A stretch of DNA of 64,000 bases from Candidatus Aenigmatarchaeota archaeon (GTDB lineage Archaea; Aenigmatarchaeota; Aenigmatarchaeia; QMZP01). Location: NCBI GenBank assembly GCA_043824495.1, contig JBDRSV010000005.1, positions 89,078-153,077 of the forward strand. The letters run 5' to 3'. A program made the translations under genes and the position numbers. This document shows positions 21,368-48,575 of this stretch, one piece after another. Each line of letters begins with the position of its first letter. The stretch's first letter is position 1. The notes beneath the pieces are model-generated. The model saw nothing but the letters and a program-made list of their open reading frames with translations, had not been told where the DNA came from and ran no database searches.

Positions 21368-22204
21368 ATGTTTAGAGCTTATGGCATCATAGGTTTATTA
21401 ATGCTAGCTTTTGCTCAATTAAATTTCATATTCCAAATACATCCATATGCTCAATGGTATTTTCCAATAATATGGTTTGGTTATATTTTGTTTGTAGATG
21501 CTTTAGTTTACAGAATGTATGGAAAATCTTTGATTTACAATAGACCTAAAATGTTTATTGTTCTCCTCATATTGTCTGCTGTAATTTGGTGGATGTTTGA
21601 AGGAATTGGATTTATACTACAGAACTGGTATTACACTGGACTTGAAGGATTCGGAACAAGATTTGAGAAATTTTTATTTGGAACGCTGTCTTTTTCAACT
21701 GTGATACCTGCTGTTTTCGAGACTTATCACTTGCTCAGATCAGTTCATTTATTTGATCATACTCATCTAAAGAAAAAACATAAAATATCAAAAACTTTGT
21801 TACATACTTTGACAGTACTAGGAATACTCTTCCTAATATTGCCTTTAGCTGCTCCAATGTATTTCTATCCAATTATATGGATTGCATTCTTTTTCCTACT
21901 TGATCCATTCAATTACCTACATGGGAGACCAAGTATAATTGGTCATCTAAAGGATAGGAATTTGGTTATTCCAGTTTCTCTTTTCGTAGCAGGAGTTATT
22001 TGTGGTTTCTTATGGGAATTCTGGAATTTCTGGGCAATTCCTCAGTGGCATTATAATATTCCATTTGTAGATTTCTTCAGAATATTTGAAATGCCCGCTC
22101 TAGGTTATCTTGGTTATGGGCCTTTCGCATGGGAATTATTTGCAATGTATCATTTCATAATTGGTTTGAAAAAACACAAGAAAGGATTCAAATTAATGAA
22201 ATAA
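21368..22204 (+). CDS. Multi-pass membrane protein, function unknown
   Basis: About 8 TMs; GFLWEFWNFWA, FEMPALGYLGY. Confidence 0.75.
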   Translation: MFRAYGIIGLLMLAFAQLNFIFQIHPYAQWYFPIIWFGYILFVDALVYRMYGKSLIYNRPKMFIVLLILSAVIWWMFEGIGFILQNWYYTGLEGFGTRFEKFLFGTLSFSTVIPAVFETYHLLRSVHLFDHTHLKKKHKISKTLLHTLTVLGILFLILPLAAPMYFYPIIWIAFFFLLDPFNYLHGRPSIIGHLKDRNLVIPVSLFVAGVICGFLWEFWNFWAIPQWHYNIPFVDFFRIFEMPALGYLGYGPFAWELFAMYHFIIGLKKHKKGFKLMK

Positions 22205-22288
22205 TGCGGGAGGCAGGATTCGAACCTGCGAAGGCACTAAGCCACACGGTCCTTAGCCGTGCTCCTTTGACCGCTCGGAAACTCCCGC
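22205..22288 (-). tRNA. tRNA-Leu, anticodon AAG
   Basis: GCGGGAG/CTCCCGC+A acceptor, anticodon arm CACGG-CTAAGGA-CCGTG, long variable arm, GCAGG-TTCGAAT-CCTGC. Confidence 0.92.
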
Positions 22289-22604
22289 TTTGATGTGAAT
22301 TATTTCTCAATAGAATATATTAATGCAATTACAGTGATAACCATTTTAAACTTTTCTGTTACTATTTAATCATAACAGTTTATGTTCTACCAATTCACAA
22401 AAAACATTCGCGGATCATATCAAAAGATTTGAATCCACATCATTCCTCATGGACACTTGCAACATCTTTAGCATGATTTCGTGCTCAAAGATTTGGTTAG
22501 TGGTATTTCTATTTCTTGAAAAGATTCGTGACTAATTTTCAGAAGAGACGTGTGTCTTTCTGATGTCTTTTGTGTCTAGAGATGAATCACACTTGGGGGG
22601 TCCC

Positions 22605-23030
22605 ATGAATTTTGAAGACGTGAATTTCGTGAGCAAGATTGGATTCGTATGTCTGCTCGTGGCGCTTGTTCAGGTTACGATGCTGAATCCGAATCATGTA
22701 GAAGCTTTGAGCTTCTTGATTATAGGAGTAATTCTTCTCCTATCGATGTTACCTTGGCACATCAAGAACGGCTTCTTACATGCCGTGTTCTTCTGGGCAT
22801 CTGAAATCAATTTCAGGAATGTCGCGGTGGTTCTCCTAGTTCTTGGAGGATCCATGTTAGGGATGGGATTCCTGCCGTCACCGAATCTCCCACCAGGCAC
22901 TACTGAATGGCAAGCAACTGTGTTCAGAAATGTTGGTGGTGCGCTTGTGATAGTGCTTGGTGTCATTCCCGCAATCCTGCTGGGAGTTGTTCGAGGAATC
23001 GATCGAATGTGCGGCGTCAAATCTGAGTGA
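22605..23030 (+). CDS. Four-TM membrane protein (island 1)
   Basis: Four hydrophobic helices; start moved to ATG after G-rich RBS. Confidence 0.65.
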   Translation: MNFEDVNFVSKIGFVCLLVALVQVTMLNPNHVEALSFLIIGVILLLSMLPWHIKNGFLHAVFFWASEINFRNVAVVLLVLGGSMLGMGFLPSPNLPPGTTEWQATVFRNVGGALVIVLGVIPAILLGVVRGIDRMCGVKSE

Positions 23031-23045
23031 TGATTAGAGACTTAT

Positions 23046-23118
23046 GGCGCCGTGGCTGAGTGGTTAAGGCACATGGTTCGGGACCATGTTTTCAGGGGTT
23101 CGAATCCCTTCGGCGCCA
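23046..23118 (+). tRNA. tRNA-Pro, anticodon CGG
   Basis: GGCGCCG/CGGCGCC+A, CATGG-TTCGGGA-CCATG, AGGGG-TTCGAAT-CCCTT; no encoded CCA. Confidence 0.88.
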
Positions 23119-23139
23119 CGAAGTTGTGAAAAGATCTTC

Positions 23140-23217
23140 GTAAGCGGATAGCATACGACGGCAGTGCACGGGCTCGATAACCCGAATGGTCGGAGGTTCA
23201 AGTCCTCCTCGCTTACT
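23140..23217 (+). ncRNA. tRNA-like RNA resembling initiator tRNA-Met with 8-nt anticodon loop
   Basis: GTAAGCG(G)A/TCGCTTAC acceptor with bulge, CGGG-CTCGATAA-CCCG, GGAGG-TTCAAGT-CCTCC. Confidence 0.7.
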
Positions 23218-23220
23218 GGA

Positions 23221-23285
23221 GAGGAAGATCCTGGTGAGTTATCTGTGAGGGAATTACTCTTTGCCTTCGGGACAGGATCTTCTTT
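23221..23285 (+). terminator. Long stem-loop after tRNA pair
   Basis: GAGGAAGATCCTG/CAGGATCTTCTTT arms with an internal C(TTCG)G hairpin. Confidence 0.55.
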
Positions 23286-23313
23286 AATGTTTGAATATGA
23301 AAGGCGGACATCC

Positions 23314-23574
23314 ATGAAAAATCATCGTACATTAAAGAGGTTGAGTGTGTGTATAATTGCATTCCTTCTACTCGCACCTCAAGTTCTTGCTACAACTGGT
23401 GGGGGAGCTGAAAGTGCATGGGATCCCTGGGATCACGGAGATACGCTGATACTGATAGGGCTTATCATAGCCATTGGTGGAATTTGGTTTACCCCGAAGA
23501 AATGGGGTGTGGGATTGCCGATTACTGGACTTGTTGTCGGTATAATTTTAGTGGTATTGGGTCTTGCAATCTAA
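23314..23574 (+). CDS. Small membrane protein with signal peptide (island 1)
   Basis: Signal-like N-terminus plus two TMs. Confidence 0.65.
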   Translation: MKNHRTLKRLSVCIIAFLLLAPQVLATTGGGAESAWDPWDHGDTLILIGLIIAIGGIWFTPKKWGVGLPITGLVVGIILVVLGLAI

Positions 23575-23596
23575 CCTCGACCATGGGAGAGTCGTA

Positions 23597-23785
23597 ATGT
23601 GTATTGATACACCGAACGGCGGCAAAGATGATCTCGGTTTCTGGGAAAGCCTCCCACTCTTGCCTCTGGTCCTCTTCGCGATATTGTGGGGAAATTTCAG
23701 GAGGAGGTGGTATTTCTGGATTCCTGGATTAGGGGTGATCGCATTTGCGATCTGGTGGTTTCTGCTAAGGGGGAGACATGTCTAA
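23597..23785 (+). CDS. Small Trp-rich two-TM peptide (island 1), paralog A
   Basis: GGGAG RBS; FWESLPLLPLVLFAILWGNFRRRWYFWIPG. Confidence 0.6.
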   Translation: MCIDTPNGGKDDLGFWESLPLLPLVLFAILWGNFRRRWYFWIPGLGVIAFAIWWFLLRGRHV

Positions 23786-23948
23786 ACGTAACGAGAATCC
23801 TCCCTTTGAAACACTCAGGTTCGTTTTCGTTGTTCTTTTCCTGGCTATAGAAGGCCACCTAAGGAAGTGGTGGCCTCTCTGGATATTTGGAGGGTTCGTT
23901 TTGACATTGGTCACTTGGAGATTGCGGAGGAGGAAGCGCCGTGCCTAA
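23778..23948 (+). CDS. Small Trp-rich two-TM peptide (island 1), paralog B, 56 aa
   Basis: Not in ORF track; GGGGAG RBS; MSKRNENPPFETLRFVFVVLFLAIEGHLRKWWPLWIFGGFVLTLVTWRLRRRKRRA. Confidence 0.65.
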   Translation: MSKRNENPPFETLRFVFVVLFLAIEGHLRKWWPLWIFGGFVLTLVTWRLRRRKRRA

Positions 23949-24027
23949 GCAAACTGTGACGATAACCATAAACCTCGAAGAATCAGATTAAGGGTAAAGT
24001 GGGTGGGAGAAAACATGGAGGTGTGGG

Positions 24028-24330
24028 ATGAATCCGTTCTTGATTGTAGTTGGTTTCCTGTTGGTAATTGTCGCGGGAATCTGCGCACGCAGAAAAGACG
24101 ACCATTTTTGCATTTACGTCTACGTGATGAGCCTTGCTGGAGTTGCGATTGCTGTTACCGGCATGGTCATTATGGAGATGCAATCTCCTGGTACAATTGA
24201 AGTCAGCATGAATTTCATAGGTCCTTTCCTATTCCCAAGTACAATCTCAATCCGCCACTTCTGGGTTGATTCCTGGAGACGACGGCAGCAAAGTATGAGC
24301 AGGGTACGATGGTTAAAAAGGAAAGAATGA
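24028..24330 (+). CDS. Small membrane protein (island 1)
   Basis: GGAGGT RBS; 2-3 TMs, basic tail. Confidence 0.6.
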   Translation: MNPFLIVVGFLLVIVAGICARRKDDHFCIYVYVMSLAGVAIAVTGMVIMEMQSPGTIEVSMNFIGPFLFPSTISIRHFWVDSWRRRQQSMSRVRWLKRKE

Positions 24331-24381
24331 CAGAGGCTAAGTTTCAGGCTTCTGTTTATATTGTCTAATTAAAGGGATATA
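24330..24381 (+). repeat. Island border copy 1: hairpin plus TTATATTGTCTAATTAAAGGGATATA (24356-24381)
   Basis: ACAGAGGC/GCTTCTGT stem abutting the 26-mer. Confidence 0.92.
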
Positions 24382-24431
24382 GAAGAGCAAGAAAAAAATC
24401 TGAAGAATCATAAAAACAAAAAAGAAGGGAT

Positions 24432-24860
24432 TTATTCTCCGATTAAATCTTCTTCTACTTTGCCTAAATCCCTTTCAAGTCTACCGATATCTTTCTTCAT
24501 TGCGTCTAAGTGTGCAAGAATTCTATTCTTTTCCTTTCCAAAGTTCTCAAGATCTTCGTAAATTCTTGTTCCTTCCTTGAACTCATTCAAGTTCATGACT
24601 ACATAAGGGAACTTGTTCATCTCTTTTGCAACATTAGTGCACATTCTCTCGAGCCACTTATTCATTGCAACCTTGACTTCCTTTCTGATCATTTTTTCTT
24701 TATCTAATCTCTTCTTCATGACCCTTACAATTGCCGCTGTAGGAAACGCAAGCTTCTCTTTTGCATCAAGATCTTCATCATCTTCTTCGACTTCTAGTAC
24801 TTTTGCTTCTATTTCTTCAGTTTCTTCTTTTACTTCTGCCTTTATTTCTTCCTTTGTCAT
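24432..24860 (-). CDS. Histone-fold protein (NFYB/HAP3-like) with acidic N-tail and coiled-coil C-terminus
   Basis: LAFPTAAIVRVMKKRL..MIRKEVKVAMNKWLE..VAKEMN. Confidence 0.7.
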   Translation of the reverse strand: MTKEEIKAEVKEETEEIEAKVLEVEEDDEDLDAKEKLAFPTAAIVRVMKKRLDKEKMIRKEVKVAMNKWLERMCTNVAKEMNKFPYVVMNLNEFKEGTRIYEDLENFGKEKNRILAHLDAMKKDIGRLERDLGKVEEDLIGE

Positions 24861-24944
24861 AATAACTCTCCTTTAAATTGGTTTTATAATCTTAGTATAG
24901 TTTTTTAAGTTAAATATTTAACGGTTGGAGTGTAATAGAGTGTT

Positions 24945-26147
24945 ATGATACCGTTGGATTACGAAACACTGAATATAGTTTCTATTGTTGCCTTCATAGT
25001 TATAGTCGCTTTACTTGTGTTAAAGGACAGGAAAAAATTCCAAAGAGACGCAGTGCTTCTTGTTAGAAGAACACAGAGAGGAAAGGAATTGATAATAAGA
25101 CTAGGAAGAAGTCATCCTACATTCTTTAGACGCCTAGGAAACATAGGAGTAGTTATAGGTTTCATAGCTTCCATTATTACAATTATACTGCTAATACAAA
25201 ATCTAGCCATGATAGCAACATCAACAGCTGATATACCAGGAGCAGCTTTAGTTTTACCTACTATATCAACTCAAGCAAGTATAGGTCCTGGATATTTTGC
25301 AGTGCCGTTCTGGTATTGGATAATATCAATTGCATTACTGATTTTAGTTCATGAAGGGTTCCATGGTGTATTTTTCGCGCGTGAGAAGTTGCGTATCAAG
25401 TCCATGGGAGTTGGATTACTTGTAATTCTACCTCTAGCTTTCGTAGAAGAAGATAGAAAAGAATTCGAAAAATTAAAGCCAATGCAGAGATTGAGAATCT
25501 TAGCAGCTGGGTCCTTTGCTAATTTCATGTTGGCTGGTTTGGCTTTCTTGGTTCTTAGCGTTGCTTTCGCTGGAGCATTTGTTTCGTCTGGCGTTTCTTA
25601 CAGTGGTTTAATTGAAGGATACCCGGCACATGACATGAACTTAACAGGTGTGATAGTTCAAATAGATCATTTTGAAATAAGAACATCAGCTGATCTAAGC
25701 GCAGCTTTAGAACAGCTAGGCGTTGGACAGACAATTGATATTTACACAGAAGTCAGAAACAGTTATGGCATAGAAGAAAAGACATATTCACTTACTACAG
25801 TGCAGTCGCCTTTTGTTGACACACCTGGGGTTAACCCAGATAAAGGATTCATAGGAATAATTGGAATTGGAGAAACGGAATCTATCGCTCCTGGATTAGA
25901 AGATTACGAGGCTGCAATTTTCTTCACTAGAGGTCTGGTAATATTCATATTCTTGCTAAACTTGTTCGTAGGTATGTTCAATGTATTGCCTCTTCCTATA
26001 TTGGATGGAGGACAGATGTGGAACATCTTGTTCAAGAAGATTGCCCCTAAGGGATACAAATTAATCACAAAAACAGTTTACTGGATTATATTCCTTCTAA
26101 TAGTAGCATTGTTTGTATTGCCAATATTGAAGCCATTCCTACTTTAA
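24945..26147 (+). CDS. Site-2 protease (M50) with PDZ-like insert
   Basis: LVHEGFHG, LAAGSFANF, FNVLPLPILDGG. Confidence 0.93.
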   Translation: MIPLDYETLNIVSIVAFIVIVALLVLKDRKKFQRDAVLLVRRTQRGKELIIRLGRSHPTFFRRLGNIGVVIGFIASIITIILLIQNLAMIATSTADIPGAALVLPTISTQASIGPGYFAVPFWYWIISIALLILVHEGFHGVFFAREKLRIKSMGVGLLVILPLAFVEEDRKEFEKLKPMQRLRILAAGSFANFMLAGLAFLVLSVAFAGAFVSSGVSYSGLIEGYPAHDMNLTGVIVQIDHFEIRTSADLSAALEQLGVGQTIDIYTEVRNSYGIEEKTYSLTTVQSPFVDTPGVNPDKGFIGIIGIGETESIAPGLEDYEAAIFFTRGLVIFIFLLNLFVGMFNVLPLPILDGGQMWNILFKKIAPKGYKLITKTVYWIIFLLIVALFVLPILKPFLL

Positions 26148-26165
26148 TAGGTAAAAATACCAAAT

Positions 26166-27293
26166 ATGATTATGCGAAAGAGGAGGGGTATTACACCCAT
26201 TATAGCTATAATTATTCTATTACTGATCACAGTTGCTTTAGGCGGAACAGCATGGACATACATGTCTGGTATGGTTGATATATACACACAGAATTCAATA
26301 GAAATATCACAATCCAATGCATTTTGTAATAATAATGTAGTTAATGTTCTAGTAAGAAATATGGGAACAGCTCCCGTACAGCTAACAACAACCCCTGTCC
26401 CATTCCAAGAATATGCTCCAGATGATAATACAGTATTACTTTATCATTTCAATGAGAATGCAGGAACAAGTACTGTAGATTCTTCAACAAGTGGAAATGA
26501 CGGAATTCTTGAAGGCACAACATTACCTGCGTGGTCTCCTGGTGTCTTTGGTAGCTCACTTCGATTTCCAGGTCACCCTACCCAAAGTGATGTTCGTAAT
26601 GGTAGCTTTGCTGATGGTGCAACAAATGTGCCTTCAGGGGATAACCCAATAACTTATGAGGCTTGGGTGTTTTTGTATGAATATCAAACGGACATAATTT
26701 CTATACCTGGAGCTACTGTTGTAGGATATGATTATTTTCAGCCAACAGCATTAACAATAGAAAATGATAAGCTTCTTTTTGTCACATATGATGGTGGTTT
26801 AAATTTAATTAATTATTCGCATTCAAGACCACTAGAATTAGAAAAGTGGTATCATGTAGCTGGGAGTTATGTTCCTGGAGCAACACCTGTAGTTAGGTTG
26901 TACGTGAACGGAGAAATGGAAGAGTTTACTGCAATTAACATCCCTATTGCTCCAAATTATCATATAGTATCTGTTGGAAGTTTACTTGCTACTGGATCAC
27001 CAGTTTATACTATTAATGCAACCATAGATGAAGTCAGAATATCCAATATAACAAGAACATTCTCAGGTTCTGAGTTTGTTGCGGCATGCGATTATTTAGG
27101 TTCTGCATTTGATTGTGGTGGGTTGAAAATAGAAAGAGTAAAAGGAACTCATGTTTATCCATTCCCATATCTTGATAGCAATGTATTGGACACTGGAGAT
27201 TCTGTCAGGATAAGAGATAATTGTCAAGGTAAGTGCGAATACGTAGTTACATCTGGTGGAGTAGCAAAGGAAATTAATTTGGATTGTTTCTAG
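26166..27293 (+). CDS. Archaeal type IV pilin-like protein with LamG domain
   Basis: RRG-ITPIIAIIILLLITV class III signal; LLYHFNE, ITYEAWV, KWYHVAGSY, IDEVRISN. Confidence 0.85.
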   Translation: MIMRKRRGITPIIAIIILLLITVALGGTAWTYMSGMVDIYTQNSIEISQSNAFCNNNVVNVLVRNMGTAPVQLTTTPVPFQEYAPDDNTVLLYHFNENAGTSTVDSSTSGNDGILEGTTLPAWSPGVFGSSLRFPGHPTQSDVRNGSFADGATNVPSGDNPITYEAWVFLYEYQTDIISIPGATVVGYDYFQPTALTIENDKLLFVTYDGGLNLINYSHSRPLELEKWYHVAGSYVPGATPVVRLYVNGEMEEFTAINIPIAPNYHIVSVGSLLATGSPVYTINATIDEVRISNITRTFSGSEFVAACDYLGSAFDCGGLKIERVKGTHVYPFPYLDSNVLDTGDSVRIRDNCQGKCEYVVTSGGVAKEINLDCF

Positions 27294-27410
27294 ACTAGGC
27301 GTGCTGAAGTGAGAGTTAAACTCGGACTTTTATAGAAACCTTTTTAAATACCCTAGATACTATATTAATTCAACCCGGCCGTTAGTGTCGAATAGAACTG
27401 GGAGTTAGTT

Positions 27411-28016
27411 ATGGCAAATTTCAAAATCGTGATATCAGATCCAAAGAGCAAAAAAGCTTATCAGAAAGAAGTAGATCAAACACAATCTGGTTTTGTAGGA
27501 AAGAAAATTGGCGAAAAAATATCTGGAAATTTTGTTGGACTTACTGGATATACTCTTGAAATAAGAGGTGGTTCTGACTCAGAAGGTTTTCCAATGAGAA
27601 CTGATGTAGAAGGAACAGCAAGAAAGAAAATTTTGATTGCTTTACCACCTGGTTTTCACCCAAAAATAAAGGGAGTTAGAAAGAGAAAATCAATAAGAGG
27701 AAACACAATCTCTACAGGAATTTCCCAAATAAATGTGAAAGTTGTTGAAAAAGGACCAAAGAGTATAGAAGAACTTCTCGGAGTAAAAGCTGAAAAGAAG
27801 GAAGAAAAAAAGAAAGAAGAAACACCTTCAGAAAAGCCAGCTGAGAAGAAAGAAGAGAAGCCAGTAGAAAAGCCTGCAGAAAAGAAAGAAGAAGTAAAGC
27901 CAACATCAACAGAAGAAAAGAAACCAGAAACACAAGAAAAAGCTGAATCAAAAATGGGCGTAAAATCACTTGAAGAAGTAGAAGAAAAAGCTGAAAAGAA
28001 AGAAGAAAAGAAGTGA
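27411..28016 (+). CDS. rps6e: 30S ribosomal protein S6e with K/E-rich C-terminal extension
   Basis: FKIVISDP, LEIRGGSDSEGFPMR, RKRKSIRGN, QINVKV. Confidence 0.95.
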   Translation: MANFKIVISDPKSKKAYQKEVDQTQSGFVGKKIGEKISGNFVGLTGYTLEIRGGSDSEGFPMRTDVEGTARKKILIALPPGFHPKIKGVRKRKSIRGNTISTGISQINVKVVEKGPKSIEELLGVKAEKKEEKKKEETPSEKPAEKKEEKPVEKPAEKKEEVKPTSTEEKKPETQEKAESKMGVKSLEEVEEKAEKKEEKK

Positions 28017-28070
28017 TTTTAAAATCTTCTATAAAAAACGTTTGTTGTAGATCTATCTATATTTCTTAAT

Positions 28071-29138
28071 TCATAATCTAGCTACTGCAGAAGATGGGAC
28101 ACTCGGGATCGTTATAGTTTCAATAGAAGTGGCATTTAGTCTATCGTCTCCGAGTTCAGTGGCTAGCCGATTTAGTTGAGATGATAAATCTCCAATTGTT
28201 TTGTATCTGATAGCATCAATAGTTTGAACAAGTTCTGCCATGGGGTATTGTAAGGTATTTACTGGATCTCGTTTTACTCTATATTCGGATATATCTACTC
28301 TTTCTGGTTCCCTTTTTTGTTTAAGTTCTTCTCTAAGTGATGCTATTTGTCTTAACTCTTCTCTAAGTTCAGTTATTCTTGCTGCATCATCTGAAGGAGC
28401 TGAAACTGCTGGTGTAATAATTTCTGTGGGCTTTACTACAGGTTTTGCTATAGTTTTTTGAATTGTAGGTTGTGGTACTACTATAGGTGTGGGTTTTCTT
28501 AATTTTCGTTTTCCAGGATCATACCCATGATGTATCACAAGTTCAGTGTTTTTACCGGATCTATTAATAGTAACGTATCGGTATCTAATTCTTGACATGA
28601 GTTCACGTGTGTCGTCTGTTGGTGTAATTTTAACTAATTTAGGATGTCTAATTATACCCAACTCGCTATCCAGTTCTTTCATTATATATGCTCTGGTACT
28701 CATTCTCCTATAATCACTCGTGCTGGTAAGCTGAGTTCTTGATTCACGTGGATTAATATCTGCTGTAGCTCCTATAGGTGTCTCAATACGATCGTCATAA
28801 TCACCAATTTTTGGCCCAGTATATCCTTCACGACGTTGCATATAATTACGATGTGTTGGGACAGATCTCATCATACTCCTTAAATGCAGCAACATTTCAT
28901 ATCTACTCAGCGGCACTACGTTCTCTCCAGGTAAAGGATTGCAATCTAAAAATTTCTGTATGTGTTCATCAACATCAACTAGACTAGCTTCCACCGCTTC
29001 TGCTGATAATTCCCATAATTTAGGATAACGGTCAGAACTTGATCCTCTGTCTATAGCTGTAACCTGGATAGTGCTATCTGGTAAGAATTTAATTGAATAA
29101 TCATGCATTGGAAGGGTATTTATAGGTGCTCTTTTCAT
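28071..29138 (-). CDS. Hypothetical protein (orphan, Pro/Thr linker and coiled coil)
   Basis: 355-aa ORF with AGGA upstream; no recognised motif. Confidence 0.6.
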   Translation of the reverse strand: MKRAPINTLPMHDYSIKFLPDSTIQVTAIDRGSSSDRYPKLWELSAEAVEASLVDVDEHIQKFLDCNPLPGENVVPLSRYEMLLHLRSMMRSVPTHRNYMQRREGYTGPKIGDYDDRIETPIGATADINPRESRTQLTSTSDYRRMSTRAYIMKELDSELGIIRHPKLVKITPTDDTRELMSRIRYRYVTINRSGKNTELVIHHGYDPGKRKLRKPTPIVVPQPTIQKTIAKPVVKPTEIITPAVSAPSDDAARITELREELRQIASLREELKQKREPERVDISEYRVKRDPVNTLQYPMAELVQTIDAIRYKTIGDLSSQLNRLATELGDDRLNATSIETITIPSVPSSAVARL

Positions 29139-29294
29139 GTTTTTCCTTATCTTATATTATTAGGTAATAACATTTTTATTAGTTTTTGAAAAATTATTTT
29201 TTTAGATTTATCAAAATTAGATTAAGTCAACTAAATTTTATAAAAGTAATTAGTTCTCTATGCAATATAATATATACTTTACGAAACTAAAAAA

Positions 29295-29438
29295 TTATTC
29301 CCAGCAGAGACTCCACCAGCTACATTTATGTCCTTTGAATTTAGAAATACAGCACGATTTGCAGATTCTTGCGAGGCGTGGATTATGTGTCTCACATTTT
29401 TTTAGAGTTTTATCTTCAGTACAATCATGACAAGCCAT
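29295..29438 (-). CDS. 47-aa Cys/His-rich peptide (possible zinc finger)
   Basis: Not in ORF track; MACHDCTEDKTLKKCETHNPRLARICKSCCISKFKGHKCSWWSLCWE; AAGGA and TTATAAA upstream. Confidence 0.55.
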   Translation of the reverse strand: MACHDCTEDKTLKKCETHNPRLARICKSCCISKFKGHKCSWWSLCWE

Positions 29439-29902
29439 ATAATCGTTCCTTTAGCATGTATTACTCAACCTCGTTTATAAGGAACTCCTAAAGAATAATT
29501 TTTATAAAAATATTTTTTTATTTGTCTCATGCTGGTTTTTGTCTAAATATTTTGAAAAATAGAGGTTTGTTAAGGTATTTATTTTTAACTATTATCAAAT
29601 AGTTATAACATTTCATTGAATCATACTCTCTACCAAATAAATAAAATTTACATATAACTCCAATTCAAGCACAGCTTGTTTTTGGTAACATCCTCATGGA
29701 GTCATGTGTGATATACACTTGCTAAATTGTCTCATATAAGCGAGAAAAAGCATGATGTACAGTGGTAGAGGAACGAACGTTGAAGTCTTTTTCTGAGCAC
29801 CGCTTTTAAGTCTTGGGTAGTCTTAAAATCAAGACTTTTGTTATAAACAGCTGACTTTCGAAATCTAACATAGTTTGTAAACAGGAAGCGAGGGTCTGAG
29901 TC

Positions 29903-31822
29903 ATGAGCGTTTTAGAACAGCTCCTCTTACTCATGCCAAGGGGGGAAGGGGTCTTAGAAGCAAACGCACTGGATGCTCTTTTAAACTGTCCTAAAGCATG
30001 GGCAATTTTTACCAGTGCTAAGAAGGCAGGAAGCCTTGGGGGTGAACAGCTAACTGAAATTGTAGTTGCAGTCGCGGAAAAACATAGGATTTCACCCGGT
30101 GTTCTGGAAGGAGCTTTGGATGATCTTCTTGGAATCCGTGCCTGTCTACTACACACATCAAAGCATCCGACTCTAGGGTATGTATTACCAACGGATGCTG
30201 CACTAGTAGAAGATGCTGGAGAGACAACTGGATCACTGGTTGGTGTAGATGGGTCCGACGACGAAACATTACCTATCGACTTGTTTGATGGAGTGTATAA
30301 GACTCTCCTCGCCCAGTTCGATTCGGCAGGACATCTGAAGCAATGGCTCGATGGAATCTTCAAACGAGGAGAGCACGACTATGGAAGAGTGGTCACGGTT
30401 ATGCTTGATGAGTACGGGGTCCAACTCATGGAAGCCATCAAGCAACTCGGTCACACTCTTTCAACTCGTCATGATCATTCCCTGGAGGACAATGATCCCT
30501 TGTGGGCCGGTGCTGTGGAATATTGGCTCACGAGCGATAAATATCTCGAGGGTGTTCCGCTTCCTGACGATGAAGCAGGACAGCTCAAACCTACTGTTGG
30601 ATTCAAGGGGAGTAAGATCAGACAGTTCTGCGCTCTTGATCGGTTCCCAACCAATTCTGCGGCCAAGGAGGAGTTCCTCAGACTCTTGGCCGCGTGTGGG
30701 GGAAGCCTTGAGAAGTTACGTAAGCAGCTACCCTCAGAAGTTCCTGAAGTCTTCTCTGGTGTTCCAGCATGGACAACTGTGGATGGTATGAAGAGGGGAT
30801 TCGAGAACAAGAGTGACTTCCCAGATGACGGCTCAAACGGCGGTATCGGCGGCGCAGGTAACAATCCTGGTGGAGCAGATCCTGGCGGCGATCCGGATTA
30901 CGATGCGATGTATACATCCTTCTTGACATGCTTTGCATCAGCATCTCACGCCAAGAAATCGGTGATGGATCTCCTACGGGACGAATGCGGTGGCGATGAC
31001 TTTGCAAGACTCGCTACCATACTCTACGAACGATTTACAAATTCAAGAAAGAAACCGTTCGGAGATAGTCTTCTACCACCAGATGTCATGCAGGACTGGG
31101 TGGAGAACAAGGAGAAGCTCGCCGGCGTTGAAGATCTCGATGACGACGGAGCTGGCGACAAGAAGAACGGTGGTGATTCTGCTGATGAACTCTCGGATGA
31201 GGATGTGTTCCCACCTCACGATCCTGAGACATTCGACCGTGACGAACTTACTTATCCCGAGAAAGCTATGTGGAGATTCATATGCCACTGTGGCGGACCT
31301 AAGAGAGCGCATCATATTCTCTTTGACTTAGTTTCCGAACATGGTGGAAATTGGGACTCTGTTTTGAAAGCTCTCAGGGAGTCTAGACCGAGTGTCTTCA
31401 GGGCGCTACGTAACCAAGGAAGCACAATTACTGGACAACATCTTATAGTCTGGGATCAGAAAATACAGAATAATAATCCAGATGAGATGCCACCAGAGTA
31501 CCACAATCTATCCGACATACATCAGCTACTGTCTACAGTGACTGTGAATAAGTTGGATGATATTCTCAATACAGAAGACATCGATGGTGTTCAGTTCTTG
31601 AGAAAACTCACTGACGAAATCACATCAATTGAAGTTCAACTGGAGGACGATTTTCAGAACGTTTCAGATGCCTTCGATTTCCTCGAAGGTCCTGAGGAAG
31701 ATGGTGCCGAAAAACAACCAGATGAAGCTGCTGCGGAGAAACTTGGTGTAAAACTTCGGATGTATCTGGAATGTAAGAAGATTATCATCAGTGAATCAAA
31801 ACCATTGGATCATGTTGTATAA
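29903..31822 (+). CDS. Hypothetical 639-aa protein with repeated helical module (island 2)
   Basis: Recurring xxCGG..L..L....P.VF units separated by acidic/Gly linkers. Confidence 0.75.
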   Translation: MSVLEQLLLLMPRGEGVLEANALDALLNCPKAWAIFTSAKKAGSLGGEQLTEIVVAVAEKHRISPGVLEGALDDLLGIRACLLHTSKHPTLGYVLPTDAALVEDAGETTGSLVGVDGSDDETLPIDLFDGVYKTLLAQFDSAGHLKQWLDGIFKRGEHDYGRVVTVMLDEYGVQLMEAIKQLGHTLSTRHDHSLEDNDPLWAGAVEYWLTSDKYLEGVPLPDDEAGQLKPTVGFKGSKIRQFCALDRFPTNSAAKEEFLRLLAACGGSLEKLRKQLPSEVPEVFSGVPAWTTVDGMKRGFENKSDFPDDGSNGGIGGAGNNPGGADPGGDPDYDAMYTSFLTCFASASHAKKSVMDLLRDECGGDDFARLATILYERFTNSRKKPFGDSLLPPDVMQDWVENKEKLAGVEDLDDDGAGDKKNGGDSADELSDEDVFPPHDPETFDRDELTYPEKAMWRFICHCGGPKRAHHILFDLVSEHGGNWDSVLKALRESRPSVFRALRNQGSTITGQHLIVWDQKIQNNNPDEMPPEYHNLSDIHQLLSTVTVNKLDDILNTEDIDGVQFLRKLTDEITSIEVQLEDDFQNVSDAFDFLEGPEEDGAEKQPDEAAAEKLGVKLRMYLECKKIIISESKPLDHVV

Positions 31823-31867
31823 CATTCACAGTCTTTCTTCAAAGGAAGACAAGAAGAGGAGGAGAGC

Positions 31868-32623
31868 ATGCCTACGATGCTCGAATTTTCAACCGTCGCG
31901 CATGTGATTAGTGCCCTTGTGACAAGTCCGCATGTGTCACCCATGGGAGCTGATCAAACACTCGAATGTGCATTTGAACTCGACAACGAAGGAGAAGTCT
32001 ACACATTTCTCAAAACTCTGCAAGGTCTGCAGGACGGTGACATCACCGAAGAATCACTCGGTGACGGTGCCGTCGAAACACTGATGAGCATCACCACTCA
32101 GGGTACCTGCGAAAAATGCGGAGATTGCGAGTGTACGATTGGCCTGGAGCCGAATAACCTCATGGCCATGGTCCGGCTCATCCGGGGCTTCTGCCAGCGG
32201 CACAATATCAAGTTCAACGGTCGCGAGGTTCCGCGCTGGTCAGGCACCGAGATTTCGGAAGAGATGCCGGCAGCAACTGCCGTAGACATGACCGATGACA
32301 CGCCGACCGACGGCGGCATTCCGGAAACACCACCGGAGGAATTCACGTCGCTCTTCAGATTCCGTTCCGACAGTCCCCTGGGACCCTATAACACCGCACT
32401 CGAAAACGAAGGCGGAGTTGTGTGGTGGCTCTACAAGCTTTCCAGGACGCCCGGATGGACCGAGCTGGATTGGATGGACGTCGCGAAGAAGCTGAAGGAG
32501 AAGACCGCTCTCACAACATTGAGTCTCAAGGACCTGGCCGTCGCACTGGAAAAGAAGTGGTCCATCGGCAACTCGTCGGCGAAAGTGAAACTCGCAAGCA
32601 CCCGCTTCGAGTGGAATGCATAG
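31868..32623 (+). CDS. Hypothetical protein (island 2)
   Basis: GAGGAGGAG RBS; CEKCGDCEC cluster; C-terminal EGGVVWWL..WMDVAKKL module. Confidence 0.7.
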   Translation: MPTMLEFSTVAHVISALVTSPHVSPMGADQTLECAFELDNEGEVYTFLKTLQGLQDGDITEESLGDGAVETLMSITTQGTCEKCGDCECTIGLEPNNLMAMVRLIRGFCQRHNIKFNGREVPRWSGTEISEEMPAATAVDMTDDTPTDGGIPETPPEEFTSLFRFRSDSPLGPYNTALENEGGVVWWLYKLSRTPGWTELDWMDVAKKLKEKTALTTLSLKDLAVALEKKWSIGNSSAKVKLASTRFEWNA

Positions 32624-32678
32624 TCGACGCCTGAAGTACTAGACAACTTGCGCTGACAAAGATGGTTGTTCGTTCACT

Positions 32679-32708
32679 CAGAGGCGGGTGTATATCCGCC
32701 CGCCTCTG
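32679..32708 (+). terminator. GC-rich intergenic hairpin
   Basis: CAGAGGCGGG/CCCGCCTCTG 10-bp stem; the loop contains TATATCC. Confidence 0.6.
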
Positions 32709-32735
32709 CATATTACTAACCCTTAAGGAGGGTAT

Positions 32736-33413
32736 ATGAGAGCTATAGAAAAATTGCTTGCCCTTCTTGCGGGCTTGTACACAAACAGAACTGAAGGCGC
32801 CGGAGATTTTTTTTTGGACAATCTCTGGATCGGTGAGCTTCTCACTAAAGCCAAAAAATCTGGAGAACTGATCCCTGATGATCTGAAGGAAATCTTTTTG
32901 AGGGCTTCGAAGGAGAGAGGTATAGCTCCTGAAGTTCTTGAAGAAGCGTTCGCAGATCTTATTGGGATCCTACAGTGTTTACTTCATCTTTCTGAACACG
33001 AGACATACGGATTTGTCTTGGAGACTCTCGAAGAAGAGCCTCTTTTTCTTCTTGTTCCTGCGACTCTGACAGATGATGAAAGAAAAGAAGAGCCGGTTTT
33101 TATTGCTGTTCCTCTGCCTCCAGCATCGAAGACCAAAAAGAAGCGACCAAAACCACAGACAGAAGCAGAAGTAAAGGCAGTCTTCGTTGAAATACATGAG
33201 ATTGATGGTTCTGGTGGAGTTGAAAGAGCTTTACGTGCCATGACAAGGACCATATCAATCTCCAACGACGGAAATAGTGGTAAGATCAGTTGGTCGAAGG
33301 TTGTTACTCTGCTCATGAAATTTTATCCTGACATCTTCTGGCAAGAACCTAGCGAAGAATTTATCAAAGCAATGATAGTCGACTTCTTGGATAGGTGGAA
33401 AGAACTGGTATAG
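32736..33413 (+). CDS. Hypothetical protein, paralog of the 29903 N-terminus (island 2)
   Basis: AAGGAGG RBS; AKKSG..GIAPEVLEEAFADLIGILQCLLHLSEHETYGFVL versus AKKAG..RISPGVLEGALDDLLGIRACLLHTSKHPTLGYVL. Confidence 0.75.
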   Translation: MRAIEKLLALLAGLYTNRTEGAGDFFLDNLWIGELLTKAKKSGELIPDDLKEIFLRASKERGIAPEVLEEAFADLIGILQCLLHLSEHETYGFVLETLEEEPLFLLVPATLTDDERKEEPVFIAVPLPPASKTKKKRPKPQTEAEVKAVFVEIHEIDGSGGVERALRAMTRTISISNDGNSGKISWSKVVTLLMKFYPDIFWQEPSEEFIKAMIVDFLDRWKELV

Positions 33414-33467
33414 GCAATCGGGGGGAAAGTTCTCGATTGCTTTATAATGTCTAATTAAAGGGATATA
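33414..33467 (+). repeat. Island border copy 2: hairpin plus TTATAATGTCTAATTAAAGGGATATA (33442-33467)
   Basis: GCAATCG/CGATTGC stem; 25/26 to copy 1. Confidence 0.92.
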
Positions 33468-33510
33468 AAGGACCAGAAAACCATTTAAGTTTTCTCTACA
33501 TATATGTACT

Positions 33511-34134
33511 ATGGCAATGGAGAGAGTTACCACAAGAAAAACAAGAATTGCTGATATTACAGCAGGTCAGTGGGTTAAGAAAGAGGGATTTGAGCCTAGT
33601 TTCATAATAACAAAAGAAGGTCATAAGATATCAAGAGCTAGGATACTTGCAACTATAGTTTCTAAATTTACAGCAGAAGATGGAAACTTTGGTTCTATTA
33701 CTTTGGATGATACTACTGATACCATTAGGGCAAAGACGTTCAAGACTGTCAAGCCTCTGGAGGGCTTAGATATAGGCACATTAGTTGATGTTATAGGAAA
33801 GATAAAGGAATACAATGGCGAAATCTACGTCATACCTGAGATTATCAGGAAGATAGATGACCCCAACTTCCTGACACTGAGAATTCTAGAAACCAAATCA
33901 AATAGATCTGAATCTACAGAAGAAAAAGAAGAATCAGTTGTTGATCCAGAAGAAAAGAACGATCTAAGAATGGACATTATTAAGATAATAGAAAATTCTA
34001 AAGATGGGGCTACATTCAAAGATATAATAAAGAATGTGAAAGCAGAAGAGTCTCAAATAGAATCTGTAATAAATGAGCTTCTCTCAGAAGGTGTTTGTTA
34101 CGAACCTACACCAGGTAAGATAAAGAAGATTTAA
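33511..34134 (+). CDS. RPA32-like OB-fold ssDNA-binding protein with C-terminal winged helix
   Basis: SRARILATIV, ITLDDTTDTIRAKTF, VDVIGKIKEYNGEIYVIPE, LLSEGVCYEPTPG. Confidence 0.88.
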   Translation: MAMERVTTRKTRIADITAGQWVKKEGFEPSFIITKEGHKISRARILATIVSKFTAEDGNFGSITLDDTTDTIRAKTFKTVKPLEGLDIGTLVDVIGKIKEYNGEIYVIPEIIRKIDDPNFLTLRILETKSNRSESTEEKEESVVDPEEKNDLRMDIIKIIENSKDGATFKDIIKNVKAEESQIESVINELLSEGVCYEPTPGKIKKI

Positions 34135-48235: not shown

Positions 48236-48308
48236 ACAACCGAGGTGGTATGGCAGAGTGGCGAGAACTCCTCTCTCGGTTGTTATATTGACTAGTTTAA
48301 GGGATATA
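48236..48308 (+). repeat. Island border copy 3: hairpin plus TTATATTGACTAGTTTAAGGGATATA (48283-48308)
   Basis: CAACCGAG/CTCGGTTG arms abutting the 26-mer; 23/26 to copy 1. Confidence 0.88.
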
Positions 48309-48575
48309 AATAGAATTCTCGGATTTAAAAAACTTTTAATTAAATAGAAAATATCATTTTCCTCAATCTACACAAATCTTAGTTTACATTGATCATCTAA
48401 TAACAATTTGATCAATTAACTCCAATGAGTCCACATGTAAACACGTAAACAGTTCGTGTTTTCTAGCTTACCTGCTGGACTCTTGTTTTTCTAATTCACT
48501 AGTAAACTAAGATGGATTGAGATGTCTTTAGTAGACTTTAGTTAATTGGAGATACTCAACGTCACAGGAGGAGTC

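Follow-up and report, generated by a model that had tools for sequence, protein, structure and literature searches.

A conserved box beside cassette-end hairpins in an Aenigmatarchaeota genome, a candidate operator of a transposase-derived zinc-ribbon/HTH protein

We report that a 27-nt box closing GC-rich foreign cassettes in an Aenigmatarchaeota genome is probably, in our moderately confident judgment, first of all the recognition site or operator of a resident zinc-ribbon/HTH protein, situated beside an ordinary terminator, and not primarily a promoter. The operator role is proposed from position and homology. What the analysis shows directly is the anatomy of the box, its pattern of conservation, the strand bias of the adjoining hairpins, the placement of a partial box before the gene for the protein, and the co-occurrence of box and gene among genomes. 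An earlier note on this DNA had read the border as an archaeal promoter firing antisense into each island; the underlying observation was confirmed, and the antisense-promoter interpretation is partly supported. Antisense firing, as predicted from sequence, is possible at some cassette ends and is not the conserved function of the box.

Anatomy, setting, and distribution of the box

The box consists of TTTATAT and a 20-nt core (TGTCTAATTAAAGGGATATA), is fused to a hairpin, and occurs in four copies in the window, i.e., the whole 64,000-nt stretch of DNA that was analyzed. The window is AT rich (∼34% GC overall) and holds four islands of ∼50% GC, every one of which is closed on the + strand by a box. 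All four copies lie on the + strand: copy 1 at 24355 to 24381; copy 2, the studied copy, at 33441 to 33469; copy 3, located between islands 3 and 4, at 48282 to 48310; and copy 4, which closes island 4, at 51723 to 51749. The core matches without mismatch at 24362, 33448, and 51730 and with 3 mismatches at 48289, in the diverged copy 3, giving 4 observed matches in the window versus a chance expectation of 0.01. Read on the minus strand, the window copies give TATATCCCTTTAATTAGACA followed by (A/T/G)TA(T/C)AA, just as the earlier note had transcribed the motif.

Genome-wide (1.01-Mb assembly), 19 box copies were retrieved at ≤3 mismatches. All of them lie at the 3′ edge of a GC island, with ∼50% GC on the 5′ side and ∼35% GC on the 3′ side, and each is preceded by a stem-loop whose sequence varies from copy to copy. 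The degenerate core was found in 31 of the 91 genomes of the order (counting this genome, G000) and in 27 of the 46 other genomes of the GTDB family, and a control with the reversed pattern gave almost no matches. The named relatives are Candidatus Aenigmatarchaeota MAGs. No description of the box or of the cassette system was found in a literature search. One copy, at G000:C5:49422-49441, ends 47 nt upstream of tRNA-Ser(GGA) (C5:49489), with the TATA of the tRNA itself (CTTAAATA) in between.

Conservation within the box is strongest at TGTC and AGGGATA, while the TATA-like ends and position 11 are variable. It ends after position 20, beyond which the flank is unconstrained both in the own-genome table and in the family table. 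In the latter, the search pattern itself determined part of columns 1 to 18, a bias that touches neither its free columns nor the own-genome table. Flank columns 21 to 28 carry only 0.06 to 0.36 bits, in agreement with the earlier remark that the position of a BRE is not conserved between copies.

Island 4 (48546 to 51578) encodes an acyl-CoA dehydrogenase and a 3-hydroxyacyl-CoA dehydrogenase; in island 3, one gene encodes an EamA transporter and another a protein that carries a type IV pilin N-methylation motif. The ORFs scanned in island 2 (three) and at the start of island 3 (the first three) gave no Pfam match, and an Rfam scan of the window returned two tRNAs and nothing else. Island 1 contains, at 23140 to 23217 and directly after tRNA-Pro(CGG), a tRNA-like gene called by ARAGORN with a 4-base anticodon (cgat), for which the Rfam tRNA model is silent at its gathering score. 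The left borders were called crudely; comparison of all 19 by short-word blastn found two related pairs only, sharing 35 to 100 nt at 88 to 97% identity (islands ending at G000:C24:47398, C24:106296, and C5:1298), and the other 16 crude borders shared nothing by this search.

Integrons with attC sites, including the archaeal integrons that have been reported, are arrays of foreign genes in one orientation, with units closed by a structured, variable element. The cassettes described here resemble them in being arrays of foreign genes of the same orientation in which each unit ends in a variable structured element. They differ in that the constant part is a linear 27-nt box beside a hairpin, whereas the folded attC site has paired R and L boxes.

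Hairpins at the cassette ends

The hairpin that precedes the box is best read as the cassette's own predicted intrinsic-type terminator. The hairpin closing island 1 (24329 to 24356, + strand) overlaps the stop codon of the ORF at 24028 to 24330, folds at −13.3 kcal/mol as + strand RNA (z −3.9) versus −5.9 as minus-strand RNA, and ranks first in a simple terminator scan of positions 22000 to 34000. The hairpin closing island 2 (about 33412 to 33442, + strand) begins at the stop codon of the ORF at 32736 to 33413 and folds at −16.2 kcal/mol as + strand RNA (z −5.2); its minus-strand fold is weaker (−8.1) because G-U pairs turn into C-A mismatches. At the copies with cores at 48289 and 51730, the sense folds (−9.5 and −8.1 kcal/mol, respectively) again exceed the antisense folds (−5.8 and −4.1), so that at every copy in the window the sense RNA has the more stable fold of the two strands; these two hairpins are no better than shuffled sequence (z −0.56 and −0.78).

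Strand bias was also assessed over all copies with the 44 nt beside the box, using segments from cassette interiors as the control. In this genome the sense advantage is 3.96 kcal/mol beside the box versus 0.46 in the interiors (p = 2e-4), and for the 104 copies of the family it is 2.01 versus 0.49 kcal/mol (p = 6e-5). An earlier 59-nt version of the test had looked significant; the interior control showed that part of its bias was base composition, and it was discarded in favor of the 44-nt test. After the stem, T is conserved at 79 to 91% at positions −7 to −5, which are columns outside those fixed by the search pattern. The folding bias toward the sense strand and the T-tract together point to the hairpin as the sense-strand terminator of the cassette. 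They argue against the proposal that it forms the structured 5′ end of an antisense RNA. Like known intrinsic terminators, the predicted cassette terminator has a stem-loop, which varies in sequence and forms G-U pairs in the sense RNA, and leads into a T-rich run; it differs in that this run is short, with TTT followed by A or G and then by TAT, and merges into the conserved box.

Promoter-like elements and the zinc-ribbon/HTH gene

A promoter rule for this genome was derived from 669 backbone ORFs (≥150 amino acids and ≤42% GC). TATA-like hexamers peak at −30 to −26 relative to the ATG, with 32 to 47 per position versus about 6 elsewhere, from which most backbone mRNAs appear to be leaderless. 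The EM-refined matrix has the core TT(T/A)A(A/T)A (TTWAWA) and a weak, A-rich BRE, and it scores ≥6 bits at 0.13% of random positions. Because the TATA boxes are near-palindromic, ordinary promoters often match the matrix on both strands. The gene rps6e, which the earlier note had offered as an example of promoter spacing, is genuine (27411 to 28016; Ribosomal_S6e, 8e-41), but it does not serve as such an example: its ATG follows the TTTAAATACCC box at a distance of 68 nt, making rps6e a gene with a leader and an exception to the leaderless rule.

Ordinary promoters of the predicted leaderless kind lie just outside two of the boxes, both on the + strand. Beside copy 2, the promoter of an RPA-like backbone gene (33484 to 33513) has TTTAAG 27 nt before the ATG at 33511, and the gene encodes OB-fold/RPA_C domains; beside copy 4, that of a Rad50-like gene (51759 to 51788) has a TATA of 8.7 bits 27 nt before the ATG at 51786, and the gene encodes Rad50/SMC domains. 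Directly after copy 3, candidate sense promoters of island 4 score 6.0 to 9.2 bits at 48324 to 48345 (including 48335) on the + strand, and comparable + strand matches precede island 1 (22344), island 2 (29501 and 29578), and island 3 (38786).

The studied copy itself carries three TATA-like elements: TTTATAA on the + strand (6.1 bits), an internal TTTAAT on the minus strand (first T at 33459, 6.3 bits), and an outer TTTATATCC on the minus strand (first T at 33469, 7.0 bits). The spacing of ∼29 to 30 nt given in the earlier note holds for this copy, in which the first T at 33469 and the 26 to 30 nt typical of the genome predict a start at 33439 to 33443, the base of the hairpin. In copy 1 the internal element is present (first T at 24373, 6.3 bits) and the outer one is incomplete, reading CTATATCC; in copy 4 the internal element again scores 6.3 bits and the outer one <6 bits; and in copy 3 the outer element is complete (minus-strand match at 48310, 10.7 bits).

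The outer register, (TT)TATATCC, starts with a T that lies two bases beyond the box. Of the 19 copies in this genome, 2 have it complete, both in the window (33469 and 48310; 1 of the 18 scored copies plus the diverged 48289 copy), as do 12% of the 86 copies scored in other genomes. AA at positions 21 and 22, which this register needs, is no commoner than at other flank positions. The outer elements at 33469 and 48310 are credible promoters because the zinc-ribbon/HTH gene, described below, uses the same register as its promoter. Among 18 own copies, 13 (72%) retain the internal element (median, 6.3 bits, against a background of 0.0013 per position for ≥6 bits). Its core is intact in 42% of copies elsewhere in the family, where 13% reach ≥6 bits, and it is destroyed in the common TTAGAGGG variant. 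A start in the internal register would fall about 17 nt beyond GACA and about 10 nt inside the stem, so the resulting RNA could not form the hairpin. In either register, TGTC and AGGGATA coincide with the would-be promoter spacer. With conservation at its peak in the spacer and none past position 20, a protein site fits the box better than a TBP/TFB site does.

The candidate for such a protein is encoded by a small zinc-ribbon/HTH gene, present once in this genome (P0001; G000:C24:108305-108691; 129 amino acids). The protein aligns with the N-terminal part (residues 19 to 191) of an IS6-type (DDE_Tnp_IS240) transposase encoded by another genome in the family (tblastn, 1.7e-10) and with positions 2 to 52 of the NCBIfam IS6 transposase model (5e-5, under the curated cutoff), and it weakly matches InsA/IS1-type zinc ribbons. 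Its zinc ribbon is of the CxxC...CxxC type with invariant C38, C41, C64, and C67 and is followed by the HTH, with no catalytic domain. A search of the genome contigs with the single P0001 sequence gave no match, although an alignment-based search did find relatives, and solved structures included no informative relative. The IS6 catalytic/DDE domain (PF13610) was not found in this genome, which is 80% complete. P0001 is thus akin to the zinc-finger N-termini of IS6/IS26-type transposases while having no catalytic domain, and the box differs from their ends in forming no inverted pairs. The box as a terminal repeat of IS6 elements was considered and rejected: at the ends of four IS6 transposase loci in the family there was no box (≤4 mismatches), nor were there matching inverted repeats.

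Intact orthologues of 95 to 129 amino acids, mostly single copy, are present in 22 of 47 family genomes, G000 included. Of the 28 family genomes that have the box, 21 carry the gene, compared with 1 of the 19 that lack the box (Fisher's exact test, 2.7e-6, a value that ignores phylogeny). In 14 of the 22 genomes, a partial box in minus orientation lies ≤70 nt upstream of the gene (≤3 mismatches), compared with a background among backbone ORFs of 12/669 at ≤3 mismatches and 0/669 at ≤2. In 8 genomes, the start codon is preceded at −29 or −30 by the box-internal TTTAAAT (TTAAAT in one case), and an outer TTTATA stands at −28 or −29 in 3 more, including this one, for a total of 11 genomes with a TATA at −28 to −30. 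In this genome the element is TTTATACC at −29 (9.8 bits), the register in which the earlier note had placed its promoter. Where the upstream box is the TCTAA (G) variant, a separate TATA-like element (TTTAAAG or TTTTAAG) is found at −27 to −29, which suggests that the variant is not itself a TATA. By its placement, the partial box is the putative promoter of the zinc-ribbon/HTH gene, and only there can the box be shown to have the position of a promoter. The geometry proposed in the earlier note is real at this one locus, where the DNA entered from the box is the regulator gene and not an island. A full box with a cassette end follows the gene convergently in at least 10 genomes. In a relative with a single contig of 1.05 Mb (G037), which has 4 boxes, the gene persists only as a weak, stop-broken remnant (L169; G037:C1:992468-992581, minus strand; E value, 0.0076; one TGA and one TAA).

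Candidate functions of the box and their meaning

The evidence above can be combined into the following model. A GC-rich foreign cassette would be transcribed on its sense strand and would end in its own hairpin and U-tract, fused to the ∼27-nt box. A protein of ∼100 amino acids that shares homology with the DNA-binding N-termini of zinc-finger IS6-type transposases would recognize the box, which by coincidence contains TATA elements facing the cassette interior. A single locus in each genome would use a partial box in that orientation as the leaderless promoter of the gene for this protein. By occupying the TATA of its own gene, the protein would be its own repressor, in the manner of IS1 InsA at the promoter in the IS1 left end. 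The same protein would also sit on the solo boxes at cassette ends, directly behind the terminator. There the TATAs, intact only in some copies, would normally be covered by the protein, so that inward antisense transcription would be at most a by-product, conditional on the absence of the protein. We infer binding of the box, repression, and any role in cassette capture, and whether a cassette-end copy fires is likewise a matter of inference. Speaking against the operator view are the relative G037, which keeps 4 boxes with a broken gene, and the internal TATA, kept in 13 of 18 own copies. A site that served binding alone would not need so many intact TATAs, and their number allows for genuine antisense promoter activity in this genome.

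Two insertion sequences offer precedents. IS1 InsA is a small zinc-finger and HTH protein whose recognition sequence overlaps the promoter of its own gene inside the IS1 left inverted repeat. P0001 is likewise a small zinc-finger and HTH protein that matches the N-terminal DNA-binding part of a transposase, and its predicted recognition sequence overlaps the promoter of its own gene and recurs as element ends. Unlike IS1, however, the promoter here is archaeal, TATA type, and leaderless rather than sigma-70; P0001 is nearer to IS6-type than to IS1 N-termini; the boxes are solo, in one orientation, and at the ends of foreign cassettes rather than inverted pairs around a transposase; and a search of this 80%-complete genome gave no DDE domain. 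In IS10, the promoter pOUT lies in the transposon end, and the antisense RNA has been demonstrated to regulate the transposase mRNA. The box is comparable in placing a promoter-like element within a terminal recognition sequence, facing the adjacent DNA and with antisense potential; it differs in that the element is intact in part of the copies only and that any antisense product is hypothetical.

Three rival readings were weighed. In the version of the earlier note, every border box is active, starting transcription at the hairpin base and yielding an island-long antisense RNA for silencing, copying, or export. The correct spacing from 33469, the outer scores of the two complete window copies, which are comparable to that of the gene promoter, and the zinc-ribbon/HTH gene, where the box is placed as a promoter in the same orientation, all speak for this version, as do the archaeal TATA-like elements on the minus strand of the box. 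Its extension to each border is not supported, given the scarcity of complete outer elements here and elsewhere, the lack of enrichment of the required flank bases, and the missing conserved BRE. In addition, the hairpins are sense biased with a 3′ T-tract, two of the four in the window are insignificant, and the commoner internal element would give an RNA with no hairpin. As for a copying template, the one reverse transcriptase found, a lone enzyme on another contig (C10:73179-73823), is group-II/DGR-like and has no box within the surrounding 3.6 kb. Taken as a whole, this version seems to us very unlikely. A regulated variant, in which inward promoters embedded in the box work at many ends, are switched by the zinc-ribbon/HTH protein, and tune or silence cassettes through antisense RNA, draws on the frequency of the internal TATA in this genome, on the 8 genomes in which this element is positioned to drive the regulator gene, and on the co-occurrence of box and regulator. 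We nevertheless regard it as unlikely: family-wide, the internal core is in the minority of copies and few of these score well, near-palindromic TATAs give matches on both strands at ordinary promoters, and no antisense product or conserved feature of the antisense strand is in evidence.

A further option turns the box around, with the + strand TTTATAT serving as the TATA of the backbone gene downstream of each cassette. In its favor, 9 of the 18 own copies have TTWAWA at −7 on the + strand, from which transcription is predicted to begin at the box's outer edge. One copy outside the window, G000:C5:22630-22649, whose last base is G, is followed 1 nt past the box by a 250-amino-acid backbone ORF starting 28 to 29 nt from the + strand TTTATAT, and this ORF may have taken over the outward TATA for leaderless transcription. 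This + strand TATA is present in just 10% of copies in other genomes, however, and the co-oriented neighbors in the window have TATAs of their own past the box (33484 and 51759). Downstream neighbors of the 104 copies are convergent in 53 cases and co-oriented in 47, which means that the box is not a general outward promoter. On the grounds of neighbor orientation and of the low frequency elsewhere, outward promotion was rejected as a general role, and we consider it the most improbable of these explanations. For a minority of copies, in the window notably those with an intact TATA at 33448 and 48289, antisense firing is plausible, and it is not needed to explain the conservation of the box, for which recognition by the zinc-ribbon/HTH protein is the account we prefer.

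These results set a limit on the antisense-RNA idea, in that antisense RNA is not what kept the box conserved. It is a stronger claim, and one that strikes us as quite improbable, that the inward TATAs are switchable promoters and that one InsA-like, domesticated protein controls both its own gene and the antisense promoters at cassette ends; if this were true, antisense RNA would act as a genome-wide dimmer for foreign (bacterial) genes in a DPANN archaeon. The partial box that appears to double as the promoter of the regulator gene is new and provides a concrete link from box to protein that can be tested at the bench. Of all the features of this system, which houses bacterial genes in Aenigmatarchaeota genomes and has apparently not been described before, the box alone is constant.
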